From Methanomassiliicoccales archaeon (GTDB taxonomy: Archaea > Thermoplasmatota > Thermoplasmata > RBG-16-68-12 > SOIM01): DNA of 64,000 bases. Made by a program: the position numbers and the translations under genes. The stretch is from assembly GCA_030593885.1 (NCBI GenBank), contig JAUVGH010000006.1, forward strand, positions 180 through 64,179. Direction: 5' to 3'. A model generated the notes under the pieces. That model saw only the letters and a program-made list of their open reading frames with translations. It had not been told where the DNA came from and searched no databases. Positions 16,010 to 22,387 of the stretch are shown one piece after another. Each line of letters starts with the position of its first letter. The stretch's first letter is position 1.

Positions 16010-16020
16010 ACTTTTAAGTA
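16010..16020 (+). promoter_or_regulatory. ACTTTTAAGTA motif, copy 1 (TATA-like, palindromic core), upstream of GTPase 1
   Basis: The identical 11-mer occurs only at 16010, 16671 and 17347 in my reading of the window. Confidence 0.5.
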
Positions 16021-16068: not shown

Positions 16069-16644
16069 GTGACTATCGTGAGCGAACTCGAAAAGGTAAA
16101 GGCGAAGATATGTCTCGTTGGAGAGGCCGCAGTGGGTAAGACCTCACTCATAAGGCGGTACGTTCTCGACGATTTTGACGACAAGTACATTACGACGCTT
16201 GGTGCGAAGGTGTCCAAGAAGATGATGGAGTTCGATGTGCCTAATAACGGTATACGCATCGGAATGGACCTGACCATCTGGGACATTATGGGCGAGAAGG
16301 GGTTCAGGGACCTGGTCAAAGAAGCTTTCTTTGTTGGGACCCGAGGGATACTGGCAGTGTGCGACATAACTCGATATGATACGCTAAAGGAACTGGATGA
16401 TTGGGTCCAGTCCGTTTTCAAGGTGGTCGGGAACATCCCGGTGATATTCGCTGTCAACAAGGTCGATCTTAAGGACGAGGTTCTTCTGATGTACGGTGAC
16501 TCCGAGCTCGACCAGGCATCCAGAGCGTTCGATGCAACCTATTTGTACACCAGTGCAAAGACGGGTGAGAACGTCGAGGAAGCTTTCAGGTTGATGGGCG
16601 AAAAGATTGTTGAATCCAGTATTTCTCCTCGATTGGCAAAGTGA
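16069..16644 (+). CDS. Small Ras/Rab-like GTPase, paralog 1
   Basis: 191 aa. G1 GEAAVGKT, switch I YITTLGA, G3 WDIMGEKGF (Glu where Ras has Gln61), G4 NKVD, G5 [13 protein letters not shown]. Start is GTG 16069, or GTG 16078 after an SD-like GGGTGTGA. Confidence 0.88.
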
Positions 16645-16667: not shown

Positions 16668-16683
16668 GATACTTTTAAGTATC
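16668..16683 (+). promoter_or_regulatory. GATACTT-TT-AAGTATC perfect inverted repeat containing motif copy 2, upstream of GTPase 2
   Basis: The centre lies about 28 nt upstream of ATG 16706, which fits a TATA box driving a leaderless mRNA. The 7-bp arms are perfectly complementary. Confidence 0.55.
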
Positions 16684-16705: not shown

Positions 16706-17311
16706 ATGTGTCCTGACTTTTCTGAAGATGGAGAATCCGTGTCGACATCCGGAGCGCAGACCAAGAAGGTCAAGAGCAAGATCTGCCTCATCGGAGAGAA
16801 GGCTGTAGGTAAGACCAGTCTGATCAGACAGTACGTTACGAACATGTTCGACGACAGATACATCACCACCGTCGGTACGAAGGTCTCCAAGAAGGAGATG
16901 TTGATAAAGAAGCCTGAGCACGGTTTCGACGTTCAGATCGACATGACCATATGGGACATCATGGGGGAAAAGGGATTCAGGGAGCTTCTGAAGGAAGCTT
17001 ATTTCTACGGCGCCAACGGAATACTCGGGGTGGCGGACATCACCCGGGAGAAGACATTGGATGACCTGGACGATTGGATCGACTCCACACTGAAGACCGC
17101 TGGAAAGGTACCGCTTTTGATCGCGATTAACAAGACCGATCTGGAAGAGGCAGTGGAGGTAGGCGACAAAGAGGTTCTTCAGTTGGCGAAGGCCTTCAAT
17201 TGCCCTTTCATCTACACGAGTGCCAAGGAAGGCGGCAATGTCGAGGAAGCGTTCTACCAGTTGGGTGAGATGACCTTGGACGCCCAGTTGGGTTTTGTGA
17301 AGCCTGAGTGA
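16706..17311 (+). CDS. Small Ras/Rab-like GTPase, paralog 2
   Basis: 201 aa. G1 [43 protein letters not shown]5 run at 17322-17326 follows the stop. Confidence 0.9.
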   Translation: MCPDFSEDGESVSTSGAQTKKVKSKICLIGEKAVGKTSLIRQYVTNMFDDRYITTVGTKVSKKEMLIKKPEHGFDVQIDMTIWDIMGEKGFRELLKEAYFYGANGILGVADITREKTLDDLDDWIDSTLKTAGKVPLLIAINKTDLEEAVEVGDKEVLQLAKAFNCPFIYTSAKEGGNVEEAFYQLGEMTLDAQLGFVKPE

Positions 17312-17343: not shown

Positions 17344-17359
17344 GATACTTTTAAGTATT
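17344..17359 (+). promoter_or_regulatory. GATACTTTTAAGTATT motif, copy 3, 160 nt upstream of the giant surface-protein gene
   Basis: The 16 nt CGATACTTTTAAGTAT (17343-17358) are identical to the copy-2 stretch at 16667-16682. Confidence 0.5.
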
Positions 17360-17518: not shown

Positions 17519-20500
17519 ATGAGAGATCCCAACCTCACACGGAAGGCAATCCATCTCCTCGTTCTAATCGTTGTAGTGCAGAGCATGATGGTAGGATTCT
17601 CAAATAGACCTGTCTCCGGCCAAGAGCCAGTGGTCTCTGATGTTGGTAGTTGGAGGAGAACAGCCACCTGGACCTTGAACGATCCCGGATACTACACCAG
17701 CGAGAACGTGACCTTCCAGGGAGGAGGTGCGAATCTCTCACTTGACGGGTATTCTTGGAACGAAACCTCATCAAGCGACTTCTCGGATGGTTCCTGGGAT
17801 GATAATGTTACCATCACCTCAGATGGGAATCTTACCCTGAAACATGATGATACGAACCTCGTCCAGAACGGGGATTTCAGCACAGGCTCTGACTGGAGCT
17901 ATGCTGACGGAGCGGGAGGAAATGTGCTGTCCGAAAGGGATGGCCTGCTTGAGAACGCCCACCTTCACCATTATGCTGCACCTGGATCTGCCATGCTATT
18001 TGAGGACTTTGAATTCCCTGGCAACGTCACCAATTGGACTAACCTTGGTGCCGGCACGACGCTTTCCTTCAATAACACCGGACATCTGAGCTCTCGATCC
18101 ATGGATATTGGGTGGTTGCCTCTTCTTCCGACAGATGCAGGTGGCGCCCGAAGATCAGCGGTGACATCATGGGACTGGTCCCTGTACAATAGACTGAGTC
18201 TCTGGATAACGACAGACATATCATCGGGGAATCTCAATGTCCACATCAACATCATTGACATCACTATGTCCTCATGGACATCGTCGCCGAAGAACGTGTC
18301 CCTTATCGGAGGGTGGAGAATGTACACTTTCGACTTGGAGGGTACAATTGACTACTCTCAAATCAAATCTCTGGACATACTATTCGACAATCTCCCTGGC
18401 GATGGAATCACTGAGAAGATGGTCACTATCGACGATATCCAGCTATTTGGTTTGAAGGTCTTTGATGAGACAGCCTATGCCAACCAGACCTTCTCCAAAT
18501 CGAATTGGACAGATAGCAGCCCCGGAAGTGTTGCACTTAGCTTTGATGTGGCAATAGAAGACGAACTGAACATCGCCGAATTCAACCTTTCTCTTTCAGT
18601 CTCTAACTCAACAAGCTCGTACAAGTGGGAGAAGACCAGTGTTGTTACGCCCTATCAGGCCAACGTAGTTGTCGATATTAGCTGGTTGATGGCCGAACCG
18701 GGGAACTACGACATAAGCCTTCAGCTGCGTCTATCCATAAGCACTCGTCTCGAGACGAGCTTTTCTTCGAGATTCGACAACATCAGCATTGTCGCCCCCA
18801 ATCGAAATAGCGGAACATATTTGTCCGACCCTCGCGACACGCTCTCCCAGTCTATCTGGGGTACCGTCTTCTGGGGGGAAGGTCCTACAGATCCAGAGAC
18901 CGATATCCGTATCTCAACAAGGACTGGCAATTCCAGCAACACGGCTGATGGATCATGGTCTGGCTGGGACACACATCTCGCCAACTCAATCATGTCTCCC
19001 CCAAACAGTTACATCCAATACAGGGTCGATCTCAACACGACCAACGCCAGCAAGGGTCCGATACTCACCAACATCAGCTTGAGTTATGACCAATACCCTC
19101 GAATCGGCACCGTTGAAACAGACAACTTCACTGTACCAGATCTTCACTCCTGGGAGGTCTTTGAGGTAAACGAGACCATTCTCCCCGAGACCGAGATAGA
19201 CTACTACTTCTCTTCTGACCTAGGAAGTAATTGGGTCCCCATCGGTGACGGGGCAAACCTATCATTCGTCACCAACAACACCATCAAACTGAAAGCCGAG
19301 CTCAAGACATCCAACACCACCTTCACTCCACAGTTGCTTGAGTTGAGACTCACCTATGAGTACACAGGGCCGCTCGACCACATCCACATGTCCGATTCGT
19401 TCCTCTCCACGACAGCTAACACCACCCTCTTCCTGTCGGCCTGGGGCCACGACATACTTCATCGAAACGTCAGTTTCACTCAGAAGTGGGAGACCGACGA
19501 TCCGGTCGGGTCGGTCGATGCCTTCGGGAACTACACTGCCGGCAAGGTCGGGAGCTGGAGGGTCTACTGCAACAACACCGCTGACACGATCTCCAACTGG
19601 ACCACGGTCGACGTGTCCGCTGGTTCTCTATTCAGGATTGGGATCGATCCGTGGGACCCTGGAACGCTTACCGCGGATGATCAACTTCAGTTCAATGCCA
19701 CTGGCTACGACGTGATGGACAACCCCTTCACTATCACACCCAACTGGTCCGTATCAGGCGGCATTGGCACTGTAGATTCTGGCCCGAGCGCCACATCCCT
19801 CTTCCAGGCCACTCAAACCGGGACGGGTCGGGTCAGCATAACTGATGGAATCCACACGAACCAAACCAACCTGTTCTCTGTCGTCGCTGGACAGCTGGCC
19901 TCGATAGACGTTTCACCCTCTCCCGTGGACCTTCTGCCCGACGAATCAACTGTCTTCACGGCTGAAGGATTTGACGGAGACGGAAACTCACTAGCACTTA
20001 CTTCCACATCTTGGGAAACGAACGCAGGCACCATAACCGGGAGCACACCCAACATTGCCAACTTCACCGCCCAATCCACGGAGCTGTTGGGTGGATATGT
20101 GAGGGCAACCCAGGATTCCATTTCAGGTGATGCCGTTGTCAACGTGGATGACAATGACGATCCACCGCAGATCCAAGGCGTTGTGCCAGACCAGCTGAAG
20201 ACCGAGGACCATGGTACGTGGACACTAGACCTTTCTTCCTTCGCCAGCGATCAGGAGGACGACAATTCTAAGCTCAAGTGGAGGGTCACTGCCGATGATT
20301 CGTCCCTATACACGATTGCAGGAGAGGACCAACCCGGGAACCATGTTCTCACATTCTCCACAAAGCAGGACGCCAACGGAAATAACGAGGTCACGCTCTG
20401 GTTGATTGACACTCGTGGCCAGACTTCCCAGCAGTCACTCTGGGTCAACATCACCCCTGTGAATGACAGACCATCGATATTCGCCCCGGACAAGGTCTTT

Positions 20501-22387
20501 GTCAGGTTCGACGTGCCAAGCCCTGAGGACTACTCCTCTTATGTCGATGACGTGGACAACCCCATTGGAGATCTGACGATATCTACGGACGATCCTGGTC
20601 ACACATCAGTTCAGGGCCTGCAGGTCACCTACGAGTATCCAGAGAGCATGGTGGGGGAACCAGTCTTTGTCATCCTGACGGTTTCTGACGGGCTTGACCA
20701 GGCTCAGGATGTGGTGGAGGTCGTCGTAACCAGCAATTACCCTCCCCGCACTCTCACCCCAATCCCGGATGTTGTCATGAACGAGGATGAGATCCTCAAC
20801 GATCATTTCGACCTGAACGATCACTTCGAAGATCCGGACGACAGCCAACTCACCTTCGGGTCGCTCTCTCAGAGAGTGGGAATAGATATCGATTCCAATG
20901 GTTTGGTCTCCCTCCATCCAGAGGCGAACTGGTTCGGAGACGAACTGGTGATGTTCTCCGCCACGGACAGTTCTGGTGCCGTTGCGTACGATCCGGTGTC
21001 CGTCAGCGTGCTACCCCTAAACGATCCACCCAGCATTGGAGGCTTGCCAGACATAACGATTCACTATGGCATCACATTCGATTTTGATGTTTCACCCTAC
21101 ATTTCTGACGTTGACAATCTGATCAGTGAGCTGACGATCTTCTGCTTGGATGCTGTCTGCTCGACCATTCAGGGCACCACCATCTCGTTCATGTATCTGA
21201 CTGAGACAACGGTCGTGGCGACCGTTACCGTCAGCGATGGAGAGTATCAGGATTCTGATATCATGGGGGTCCGAGTGACAGACAACAATCCGCCCGTGTC
21301 CAAAGGCCTTCCAGATGTGTTCTTCAATGAGGATGAGGCTCTTCCATCTGCTTTCGCCCTTGAGGACTATTTCAGTGACCTGGAGAGCGCCACCCTGACC
21401 TTCTTGGTCAACCAGACCCAGTCCTACGTCCAGGTCTCAATTGGGATCGACACCGTGGTATCATTCTCATCAACAGAGAACTGGAGCGGCCAACAGATCA
21501 TTGTGTTCAGGGCCGTTGACGGGAACGGCGCGGTCGTTGAGGATTCGATCATTGCCACAGTGATCCCTGTGAACGATGCTCCCTTCATCTCCCCGATCCC
21601 TAGGCAGAGTGGCGAGAAGAACAAGGCCTGGCTACTCGATCTAAGTTCATACATCTTTGATTCCGACAACAAGACCGACGACCTTCGGATAGAGTCTGAC
21701 TTCGAGTATGTGATTGTGGCCGGACACTTCCTGATCTTCAATTGCGAAGAGAGCTTCGATTCGAGGAATACCAATGCAACCGTGAACGATGGTCTGCTTC
21801 AGAGCTCCAGCCCATTCGAGGTCAGCGTCACCTCTCCTGTCAACCCTCAGGTCGAGATGTACATATGGCCGACGTCGATAGGCATCATCCTGCTGGGATT
21901 GGTCGGATTGCTTTACTGGAGAGCATCCAGGGGTTTCGTGCTGGAGGACCTCTTCGTCATCGGAAAGGACGGTAAGCTCCGGGTCCACAAGACCACGCGG
22001 ACCAGACCCGACAGAGATGAGGATCTTTTCTCCGGAATGTTGACCGTCATTCGAGATTTCACCGCAGACACATTCAGGGAAGAGAAGGGCACCCTGAAGT
22101 CATTCGAGCTGGAAGAGGATAAGAAGGTCATCATGGAGTCTGCAGAGGGCTTCTATGTTGCATTGATTTTCTCCGGAAAGGAACCCGGGTGGGCGCCGAA
22201 GTCGCTTGAAGCCTTCTCCCAGGACATGGAGACCATGTACGGTCCTTTGATCACGTCTTGGTCGGGAGCCATGGATGAGTTGGGAGACCTTCCTAATATG
22301 GCCGATTTCTTCATACATAAAAGAAAATACAGCGTCGGGGACTGGCAACCAACTGAAGATGAACTACCGTTCGAAGAAGCGGACTAG
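17519..22387 (+). CDS. Giant sequon-rich surface protein: N-terminal hydrophobic anchor or signal, CBM/Ig-like regions, six cadherin-like modules, one TM helix and a 155-aa cytoplasmic Roadblock/MglB-like tail
   Basis: 1622 aa. N-terminal LLVLIVVVQSMMVGF. Dense NxS/T sequons (NVT, NLS, NET, NVT and NLT within about 50 residues). Modules end in PVNDRPS, LNDPPS and PVNDAPF. TM helix WPTSIGIILLGLVGLLYW at 21866-21919. The tail at 21920-22384 reads LFVIGKDGKLRVH..DLFSGMLTVIRDFTADTF..LKSFELEEDKKVIMESAEGFYVALIFSG. Confidence 0.9.
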   Translation: MRDPNLTRKAIHLLVLIVVVQSMMVGFSNRPVSGQEPVVSDVGSWRRTATWTLNDPGYYTSENVTFQGGGANLSLDGYSWNETSSSDFSDGSWDDNVTITSDGNLTLKHDDTNLVQNGDFSTGSDWSYADGAGGNVLSERDGLLENAHLHHYAAPGSAMLFEDFEFPGNVTNWTNLGAGTTLSFNNTGHLSSRSMDIGWLPLLPTDAGGARRSAVTSWDWSLYNRLSLWITTDISSGNLNVHINIIDITMSSWTSSPKNVSLIGGWRMYTFDLEGTIDYSQIKSLDILFDNLPGDGITEKMVTIDDIQLFGLKVFDETAYANQTFSKSNWTDSSPGSVALSFDVAIEDELNIAEFNLSLSVSNSTSSYKWEKTSVVTPYQANVVVDISWLMAEPGNYDISLQLRLSISTRLETSFSSRFDNISIVAPNRNSGTYLSDPRDTLSQSIWGTVFWGEGPTDPETDIRISTRTGNSSNTADGSWSGWDTHLANSIMSPPNSYIQYRVDLNTTNASKGPILTNISLSYDQYPRIGTVETDNFTVPDLHSWEVFEVNETILPETEIDYYFSSDLGSNWVPIGDGANLSFVTNNTIKLKAELKTSNTTFTPQLLELRLTYEYTGPLDHIHMSDSFLSTTANTTLFLSAWGHDILHRNVSFTQKWETDDPVGSVDAFGNYTAGKVGSWRVYCNNTADTISNWTTVDVSAGSLFRIGIDPWDPGTLTADDQLQFNATGYDVMDNPFTITPNWSVSGGIGTVDSGPSATSLFQATQTGTGRVSITDGIHTNQTNLFSVVAGQLASIDVSPSPVDLLPDESTVFTAEGFDGDGNSLALTSTSWETNAGTITGSTPNIANFTAQSTELLGGYVRATQDSISGDAVVNVDDNDDPPQIQGVVPDQLKTEDHGTWTLDLSSFASDQEDDNSKLKWRVTADDSSLYTIAGEDQPGNHVLTFSTKQDANGNNEVTLWLIDTRGQTSQQSLWVNITPVNDRPSIFAPDKVFVRFDVPSPEDYSSYVDDVDNPIGDLTISTDDPGHTSVQGLQVTYEYPESMVGEPVFVILTVSDGLDQAQDVVEVVVTSNYPPRTLTPIPDVVMNEDEILNDHFDLNDHFEDPDDSQLTFGSLSQRVGIDIDSNGLVSLHPEANWFGDELVMFSATDSSGAVAYDPVSVSVLPLNDPPSIGGLPDITIHYGITFDFDVSPYISDVDNLISELTIFCLDAVCSTIQGTTISFMYLTETTVVATVTVSDGEYQDSDIMGVRVTDNNPPVSKGLPDVFFNEDEALPSAFALEDYFSDLESATLTFLVNQTQSYVQVSIGIDTVVSFSSTENWSGQQIIVFRAVDGNGAVVEDSIIATVIPVNDAPFISPIPRQSGEKNKAWLLDLSSYIFDSDNKTDDLRIESDFEYVIVAGHFLIFNCEESFDSRNTNATVNDGLLQSSSPFEVSVTSPVNPQVEMYIWPTSIGIILLGLVGLLYWRASRGFVLEDLFVIGKDGKLRVHKTTRTRPDRDEDLFSGMLTVIRDFTADTFREEKGTLKSFELEEDKKVIMESAEGFYVALIFSGKEPGWAPKSLEAFSQDMETMYGPLITSWSGAMDELGDLPNMADFFIHKRKYSVGDWQPTEDELPFEEAD
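20147..21850 (+). repeat. Six divergent ~95-100-aa tandem cadherin-like modules (protein-level repeats) in the ectodomain
   Basis: Recurrent module boundaries: DDNDDPPQI, ITPVNDRPSI, VTSNYPPRTL, VLPLNDPPSI, VTDNNPPVSK, VIPVNDAPFI. Each module has acidic D-x-D/N-rich loops. Confidence 0.6.

Follow-up and report, generated by a model that had tools for sequence, protein, structure and literature searches.

A predicted longin-type domain behind the membrane helix of a giant surface protein, genomically linked to a pair of Rab-like GTPases in Thermoplasmata

Longin and Roadblock domains are universal platforms for the regulation of small GTPases, and the identity of eukaryotic membranes is set by longin-Rab pairs. 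Among prokaryotes, longins have so far been discussed mainly for the Asgard archaea, whose genome layout hampers partner assignment; for strain MK-D1 of this group, it has been reported that the small GTPase genes are generally not found in operons with Roadblock or longin genes (PMC10933270). For the Thermoplasmatota, an earlier study listed no more than one divergent Rab-like protein each from Aciduliprofundum and a Thermoplasmatales archaeon (PMC4915359). Here we analyze a stretch of 64,000 nucleotides (hereafter, the window) from the genome of a Methanomassiliicoccales archaeon (class Thermoplasmata; assembly GCA_030593885.1, contig JAUVGH010000006.1, positions 180 to 64,179), in which the C-terminal tail of a 1622-amino acid surface protein is predicted to be a longin-type domain set directly behind the transmembrane (TM) helix, and two Rab-like GTPases, G1 and G2, are encoded directly upstream. 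Full-text searches of the literature yielded no description of a TM-tethered longin linked to tandem Rab-like GTPases in Thermoplasmatota, and the conserved trio may represent a so far undescribed module, present in archaea other than Asgard, that connects a surface protein with GTPases.

The eukaryotic and Asgard longin-Rab/Arf platforms (TRAPP Bet5/Trs23, Mon1-Ccz1, Fuzzy-Inturned, the DENN/FLCN type and the Lokiarchaeota Roadblock-Longin protein 8yqg) share with the tail both the fold and the order of the elements, with Z scores against the tail model of 11.7 for sedlin (2j3w_A), 11.6 for Fuzzy (7q3d_C), 11.4 for Mon1-Ccz1 (5ldd_E) and 10.5 for the Lokiarchaeota longin (8yqg_B). As in these platforms, the likely partners here, judging from gene order, are Rab-like GTPases, but here a giant extracellular protein carries the domain directly behind its TM helix, the organism belongs to the Thermoplasmata rather than to the eukaryotes or the Asgard archaea and, unlike in MK-D1, the GTPase and platform genes show strong operon-type linkage (25 of 43 loci, see below). 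MglA/MglB and the archaeal Roadblock/LC7 proteins (PF03259) have a homologous core and also a small GTPase gene beside the platform gene, an arrangement that the loci studied here keep across genomes. The tail differs from MglB and the Roadblock proteins in lacking the N-terminal helix, in having an added C-terminal helix and in being membrane-tethered rather than soluble, and, unlike the MglA/MglB system, the locus encodes two Rab-like GTPases. The longin SNAREs (Sec22b, Ykt6 and VAMP7) are the best structural matches, and the longins of Sec22b and VAMP7 likewise reside in membrane-anchored proteins; however, the SNARE order of N-terminal longin, SNARE motif and C-terminal anchor is reversed here, with the TM helix first and the longin within five residues of it, and the tail protein has a 1400-amino acid ectodomain and no SNARE motif. 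In the signal recognition particle (SRP) receptor SRX-SRbeta, a longin-type domain and a small GTPase meet at the membrane, and SRX chains match the tail with Z scores of 9.0-9.6. The TM anchor of the SRP receptor is carried by the GTPase SRbeta, so that the anchoring here is the inverse, the longin domain having the TM helix and the GTPases being soluble. In the actinobacterial conservon, finally, one locus provides a membrane sensor that is functionally coupled with a small GTPase and a member of the Roadblock superfamily (PMC4316618). The conservon parts are separate (the sensor histidine kinase CvnA, the Roadblock protein CvnB, CvnC and the Ras-like GTPase CvnD), whereas in the present case platform and membrane protein form one polypeptide of 1622 amino acids, in which Pfam and NCBIfam scans detected no kinase domain, and the locus contains no kinase or CvnC-like gene.

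The surface protein has the following layout (positions are those of the window):

17519..22387, + strand: surface-protein gene, 1622 amino acids, single-pass (open reading frame (ORF) call, stop codon included)
17546..17602, + strand: N-terminal hydrophobic segment, residues 10-28, putative signal peptide or signal anchor (Kyte-Doolittle scan and sequence)
17621..21862, + strand: predicted ectodomain, residues 35-1448, rich in NxS/T, with Ig/cadherin-like repeats (sequon count, Pfam and NCBIfam repeats)
21863..21919, + strand: predicted TM helix, I1449-W1467, 19 residues (Kyte-Doolittle scan; helix 1443-1470 in the AlphaFold2 (AF2) model)
21920..21934, + strand: basic linker RASRG, residues 1468-1472, five residues (sequence and AF2)
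21935..22321, + strand: predicted longin-type domain, residues 1473-1601 (AF2 model, structural alignment, hhalign)
22322..22384, + strand: acidic C-terminal tail, residues 1602-1622, net charge -5, lower-confidence part of the model (AF2, charge count)

The tail as a whole comprises the final 155 codons of the ORF (residues 1468-1622), from the first base of the R1468 codon at 21920 to the last base of the D1622 codon at 22384. The first-pass annotation, made without database searches, placed the start of the tail domain about five residues past the TM helix, at the first beta hairpin, and noted an acidic C-terminal end; both statements hold, the RASRG linker being followed by strand b1 from F1473 in the AF2 model and the last 21 residues carrying a net charge of -5. 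The ectodomain matches Big_9 (Pfam, 1.5e-6) and the tandem-95 repeat (NCBIfam, 3e-15) and contains 37 NxS/T sequons, compared with 18.9 +/- 3.7 in 500 shuffles, whereas the tail has none, and two arginines follow the TM helix. This sequon bias and the arginines are consistent with a cytoplasmic location of the tail. The outer end of the TM helix (window positions 21848-21880) carries a conserved motif of the Trp-Pro-Trp/Ser type, IWPTS here and YWPWSG in many relatives.

The AF2 model of residues 1440-1622, for which an alignment of 150 homologous segments (A1) served as input, has a predicted local distance difference test score (pLDDT) of 89.6 and a predicted template modeling score (pTM) of 0.79, with block pLDDT values of 63-71 for the last 21 residues. 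In this model, the TM helix, which extends to residue 1470, is followed by b1 (1473-1482), b2 (1487-1492), helix a1 (1497-1521), b3 (1527-1532), b4 (1535-1541), b5 (1545-1553), a2 (1559-1579, the segment LEAFSQDMETMYGPLITSW), a short helix (1585-1588, MDEL) and a3 (1591-1601, PNMADFFIHKR); the corresponding DSSP assignments, in model numbering, are E34-43, E48-53, H58-82, E88-93, E96-102, E106-114, H120-140, H146-149 and H152-162. The order of the elements, bb-a-bbb-a-a, is that of longins, as opposed to a-bb-a-bbb(-a) in Roadblock proteins, and the longin architecture is also apparent in the five-stranded antiparallel sheet, flanked by a single helix on one side and by two on the other, and in the absence of an N-terminal helix.

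The comparison with solved structures points in the same direction. The top Foldseek matches in the PDB are AP sigma subunits, zeta-COP, Sec22b, Mon1-Ccz1 and TRAPP longins, and when the Foldseek candidates were aligned with VIA-align, the top 50 were longins throughout, including Sec22b (1ifq_A, Z 14.7, root mean square deviation of 2.6 A over 125 of 127 residues, model residues 35..164), Ykt6 (3bw6, Z 13.7), VAMP7 (4afi_B, Z 13.1) and AP2 sigma (Z 13.0). A Foldseek-independent search of 48,161 chains produced a top 50 consisting exclusively of members of the longin or Roadblock superfamily. In this search, the longins, with Z scores of 10-13.1, align over 120-139 residues and reach model residue 164-181, whereas the Roadblock chains, with Z scores of 8.6-9.6, align over 92-104 residues, starting no earlier than their own residue 15-27 and stopping near model residue 141, thus covering only b1 to a2. 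Examples of the latter are MglB (6hjm_A, Z 8.6; 3t1r_A, Z 8.9), MP1/p14 (3cpt_A, Z 9.3), a Thorarchaeota Roadblock protein (7f8m_A, Z 9.3) and a Streptomyces protein (3kye_A, Z 9.3). The TM helix is almost absent from the structural alignments, the rows of which span model residues 33-179. The tail is thus predicted to be a complete longin-type domain of the Roadblock/longin superfamily, set directly behind the TM helix.

At the level of sequence, the family is connected to Roadblock. A profile-profile comparison (hhalign) of A1 with archaeal (Thermoplasmata) Roadblock proteins, namely, 34 soluble ones from this genome and 20 related genomes, gives a probability of 91.5% (E 8.8e-7) over 102 columns and matches tail positions 29-133 to positions 13-117 of the 119 in the Roadblock profile; the shallower alignment A2 yielded 57.8%, and the controls against a GTPase alignment gave 0.3-0.4%. 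The tail does not reach the gathering threshold of the Roadblock/LC7 family PF03259 (23 bits), and among the 150 aligned family members, 12 match Robl_LC7 at E<=0.1 (best 3.1e-5) and three match Fuz_longin_1 (best E 7.4e-4). The claim that the tail lacks the N-terminal helix of Roadblock proteins was already part of the first-pass annotation and is borne out by the profiles: positions 1-12 of the Roadblock profile, that is, helix a1, remain unmatched, and a paralog on contig C90 shows a weak match to Robl_LC7 (15-16 bits, E 0.016) that covers only model positions 14-90. In the tail itself, b1 begins six residues past the hydrophobic TM segment, with no N-terminal helix a1 of the Roadblock kind. 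The only phmmer matches of the tail in the PDB were to interferon-gamma chains; the two with significant scores (3.7e-5) were rejected as spurious because they are single-chain tandem constructs that double one weak 52-residue match.

Given the hhalign result and the order of elements in the AF2 model, the family is homologous to the archaeal Roadblock proteins and yet has, by prediction, the longin arrangement. Helix a1 of Roadblock proteins is equivalent to a3 of longins by circular permutation (PMC3747258), and the additional C-terminal helix of the longin sits where Roadblock a1 does (PMC10933270; PMC3747258). According to the model, the position of Roadblock helix 1 is filled here by the C-terminal helix 1591-1601 rather than by the TM helix. 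The latter is dispensable for the fold because the domain is also present in soluble family members that lack a TM helix altogether. Of the original assignment as a Roadblock-like domain, then, the membership in the superfamily stands (hhalign probability of 91.5%; top 50 structures), but the predicted arrangement is that of a longin (pLDDT 89.6 for the single-copy model; Z of 14.7 for Sec22b versus 8.6-9.6 for Roadblock chains). The accompanying idea that the TM helix replaces a1 is not supported, given that the two C-terminal helices align with longin a2 and a3, that the TM helix is nearly unaligned and that soluble members exist.

Immediately upstream of the surface-protein gene, consecutively and on the same strand, are the genes of the two GTPases:

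16069..16644, + strand: G1, Rab-like small GTPase, 191 amino acids, GTG start (Pfam Ras 6.5e-30, Roc 1.7e-24; TIGR00231 small_GTP)
16706..17311, + strand: G2, paralogous Rab-like small GTPase, 201 amino acids (Pfam Ras 1.3e-34)

The two proteins are 55% identical. The nearest solved chain for G1 is the Thorarchaeota Rab 7ezb (1.3e-25), followed by Rab21, Rab6 and Rab1, with Ran also among the best; there is no MglA chain among the best 60 PDB matches listed for G1, a comparison that involved no MglA-specific profile. The P-loops of the pair are GEAAVGKT and GEKAVGKT, with residues other than glycine where Ras has Gly12/13, and both proteins have a glutamate (WDIMGEKGF) at the position of Ras Gln61. 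Both features are conserved across the orthologs, and such deviations suggest low intrinsic hydrolysis or an unusual mechanism of GTPase-activating proteins (GAPs). The check for membrane targeting was confined to a C-terminal cysteine, to which the prenyl anchor is attached in eukaryotes; neither G1 nor G2 has one.

The first-pass annotation assumed a GTPase locus, and this is supported by the gene order, within the window and across genomes. When each prokaryotic species was represented by one genome and scanned with a 20-sequence alignment as the query, 56 related loci were identified, nearly all in metagenome-assembled genomes of Thermoplasmata, Thermoplasmatota or Methanomassiliicoccales, a minority being labeled only 'Methanobacteriota archaeon' or 'Euryarchaeota archaeon'. 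In 43 of these loci, which come from genomes of different Thermoplasmata species, the upstream genes can be seen. Two GTPase genes lie directly upstream on the same strand in 25 of the 43, a GTPase pair is located 0.8-3.1 kb upstream in four, a single GTPase gene is present in another four and 10 have no upstream GTPase gene. The G2 orthologs hold the second position in 25 related loci. The G1 orthologs are 64-79% identical to G1 and the tails mostly 34-45% identical (about 60% in the nearest genera), with the length of the whole protein ranging from 806 to 1743 amino acids. Thus, with the tail and the GTPases kept and the protein length varying, the module seems to consist of a conserved cytoplasmic end together with the GTPases, attached to a variable ectodomain. 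The distances between tails correlate with those between G1 proteins (r 0.93, partial r 0.78), which is weak evidence, being confounded by shared ancestry.

The locus in the window is flanked downstream by a convergent A-type ATP synthase operon and, further upstream, by the orotidine monophosphate (OMP) decarboxylase and POR genes. Each gene of the trio is preceded by a copy of the same 11-mer:

16010..16020, + strand: 11-mer ACTTTTAAGTA, before G1
16671-16681: 11-mer ACTTTTAAGTA, before G2
17347-17357: 11-mer ACTTTTAAGTA, before the surface-protein gene

The first copy is 59 nucleotides upstream of the G1 start and the third one is 172 nucleotides from the ATG of the surface-protein gene. 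With at most one mismatch allowed, the 11-mer has exactly three matches in the 64 kb, compared with a mean of 0.28 in shuffled sequences, none of which (0 of 100) reached three; it might be a promoter or a regulatory site.

The tether is not confined to this protein. With residues 1440-1622 as the query against 1.84 billion representative proteins, 1406 clusters (at 50% identity) were detected at E<=1e-3 and 339 at E<=1e-10. Of the 150 aligned copies, 92 are preceded by a TM helix at a distance of 45 residues or less, the median spacing between it and the conserved 'ED' that opens b1 being six residues, so that, judging from the sequences, the TM tether is a family trait. In a sample of the phylum, the domain was found at E<=1e-10 in 40 of 301 genomes and in 26 of 138 genera, usually in many copies. 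The 2.1-Mb genome analyzed here contains 11 domain matches (10 strong and one marginal, E 0.0025) and 14 Rab-like GTPase genes. Three tandem giant paralogs of 1634, 1664 and >1416 amino acids on contig C90 (41735-56032, locus L006) end in a TM helix and a tail; one of the three matches the domain only at E 0.0025, and the third gene is cut by the contig end. In addition, in five soluble proteins of about 1000 amino acids, the domain lies within an AAA_16 (STAND) NTPase that precedes long TPR arrays, and three of the five adjoin a single Rab-like GTPase gene. The STAND-TPR carriers of the domain (loci L018-L022) are:

C47:6653-9628
C50:23349-26501
C87:59406-62480
C43:36108-39137
C43:52669-55812

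We favor, as somewhat better than an even bet, the interpretation of the tail as a membrane-anchored docking and regulatory platform for G1 and G2 that couples events at the ectodomain to the nucleotide state of the GTPases. Under this scenario, the longin domain would be held at the inner face of the membrane by the five-residue linker behind the single TM helix, the giant, glycosylated, repeat-rich ectodomain being the surface part of a receptor. G1 and/or G2 would dock on the face of the tail that carries helix a1, and the tail would dimerize via a1 and b3 like other longin/Roadblock platforms. The role of the tail could be that of a guanine nucleotide exchange factor (GEF), a GAP or a scaffold, and the signal could pass outside-in or inside-out. 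Because the GTPases lack the C-terminal cysteine, a TM-tethered platform that brings them to the membrane would account for their recruitment. Conservation in the family peaks at b1-b2, the b2-a1 loop (RxRxDRDED) and a1. The top face on which longin/Roadblock platforms bind GTPases is made by a1, the same helix pairs with b3 to build the dimer interface, and a 'long form' of a1 is associated with dimerizing longins (PMC3747258). The tail a1, at 25 residues, is close to the 'long form', and from both the conservation pattern and this length, we infer a fit to the platform interpretation.

Several observations weigh against this interpretation. The tail has no matches in Pfam (E<=1) or NCBIfam and no credible match among the PDB sequences, the A1 profile finding nothing below E 0.16 there, and the longin fold is an AF2 prediction rather than a solved structure. 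GTPase binding, dimerization and an enzymatic effect of the tail are all inferred, and longins with roles other than GTPase regulation (SNAREs and adaptor sigma subunits) are the top matches of the modeled structure. With 10 of the 43 loci devoid of an upstream GTPase gene, the linkage is frequent but not obligatory, and given that each gene of the trio has its own promoter-like 11-mer, co-transcription is not established.

The possibility originally raised, that of a Roadblock/MglB-type domain with the TM helix in place of a1, such that clustering of the ectodomain drives homodimerization and thereby GTPase regulation, draws on the sequence profiles, which tie the family to Roadblock and not to any longin Pfam model, on the lack of a counterpart to Roadblock a1, with the TM helix at exactly that sequence position, and on the dimers that are usual for both Roadblock and longin platforms (PMC3747258). 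We nevertheless regard it as improbable because the two C-terminal helices superpose on longin a2 and a3, a3 taking the place of Roadblock a1 (PMC10933270; PMC3747258), because the TM helix hardly ever enters the structural alignments (model residues 33-179) and because the domain is retained in soluble members that have no TM helix.

Two further alternatives concern function rather than fold. The GTPases could be the upstream switch and the tail an effector site on an adhesin, so that the GTPase state would govern the placing, clustering or turnover of the surface protein and the ectodomain would send no signal inward. The adhesin-like character of the ectodomain, with its Ig/cadherin-like repeats and heavy predicted glycosylation, and the arrays of giant paralogous surface proteins that share the tail are compatible with such inside-out control, and there is an analogy with MglA-GTP governing the focal-adhesion complexes of bacteria; MglA is documented to bind a gliding-machinery membrane protein through motifs in the cytoplasmic part of that protein (PMC11135422). 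However, the sequence gives no direction, and most longin/Roadblock platforms described so far act as regulators (GEF or GAP) or as scaffolds, not as effectors (PMC3747258), which leaves inside-out control unlikely, albeit worth keeping in mind. Alternatively, the tail could act independently of the GTPases, as a protein-protein, membrane-proximal anchoring or autoregulatory module, comparable to the longins of SNAREs and adaptor small subunits, that shares only regulation with G1 and G2. The best structural matches, to SNARE and adaptor longins, the 10 of 43 evaluable loci without upstream GTPases and the occurrence of the domain in STAND-TPR, CARDB and response-regulator fusions all speak for such a module. 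Against it, the order G1-G2-receptor is kept in the genomes of at least 25 species, the soluble STAND versions of this genome again adjoin GTPases, and the rank among longin structures says little about function; accordingly, we consider this alternative quite unlikely.

If the tail is indeed a platform for G1 and G2, it would represent a prokaryotic receptor-to-small-GTPase pathway made from the longin-Rab pairing that is used in eukaryotic membrane traffic, and longin-Rab pairing as well as membrane-localized longin platforms would have arisen or spread outside the Asgard-eukaryote line. Confirmation of the binding would bear on the origin of the longin-Rab partnership, its place and time. 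The wider proposition, that a non-Asgard lineage has a widespread receptor/adhesin family in which a tethered longin platform recruits two dedicated Rab-like GTPases directly and regulates them, is tentative, its chances falling a little short of even. What sets the Thermoplasmata family apart is the fixed membrane attachment of a longin-type domain that is preceded by a very large and variable ectodomain, the genetic lock to two Rab-like GTPases in many species and the expansion to many paralogs along with the soluble STAND-TPR versions. The family comprises more than 1400 sequence clusters, and the sequence of this tail places it in no Pfam model. The trio offers a regulator-GTPase pairing that is amenable to testing and a candidate for receptor-coupled small-GTPase signaling in archaea.

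The domain also occurs in other architectures. In this genome, a CARDB/DUF5915 protein (contig C66:18303-23912, locus L023) contains two copies; proteins of this class (L023; P0003, P0004 and P0007) consist of 1900-2400 amino acids, with two or three copies of the domain, CARDB before each copy and a C-terminal DUF5915, and no clear TM helix was detected in them by the hydropathy scan. Another class, with four TM helices and about 570 amino acids, has two tandem copies (P0075, P0076, P0079, P0083, P0099 and P0148; alignment A4). In the model of P0075:240-572, built from a 6-sequence alignment, both copies have the order bb-a-bbb-a, and a long TM-proximal helix continues straight into b1, the scores (pLDDT 72, pTM 0.42) being too low for conclusions on domain packing. 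A Pfam scan of the odd-sized family members revealed no fusion to a GTPase. A shape search of the ESM Atlas, with query TM-scores of 0.59-0.65, found the combination of a TM helix and this fold in bacterial OmpA-family proteins (Pseudomonadota and Cyanobacteriota) and in SH3_3 proteins of Chloroflexota, and the fold fused to response-regulator receiver domains in Thermoplasmatota. As for the Rab-like GTPases of this genome, four of their genes form a tandem array on contig C80 (8947-11337; locus L024:3921-6371, - strand), followed by a gene for a LonB-type protease, with a KaiC-like ATPase gene and a 7TM-DUF835 gene placed divergently.

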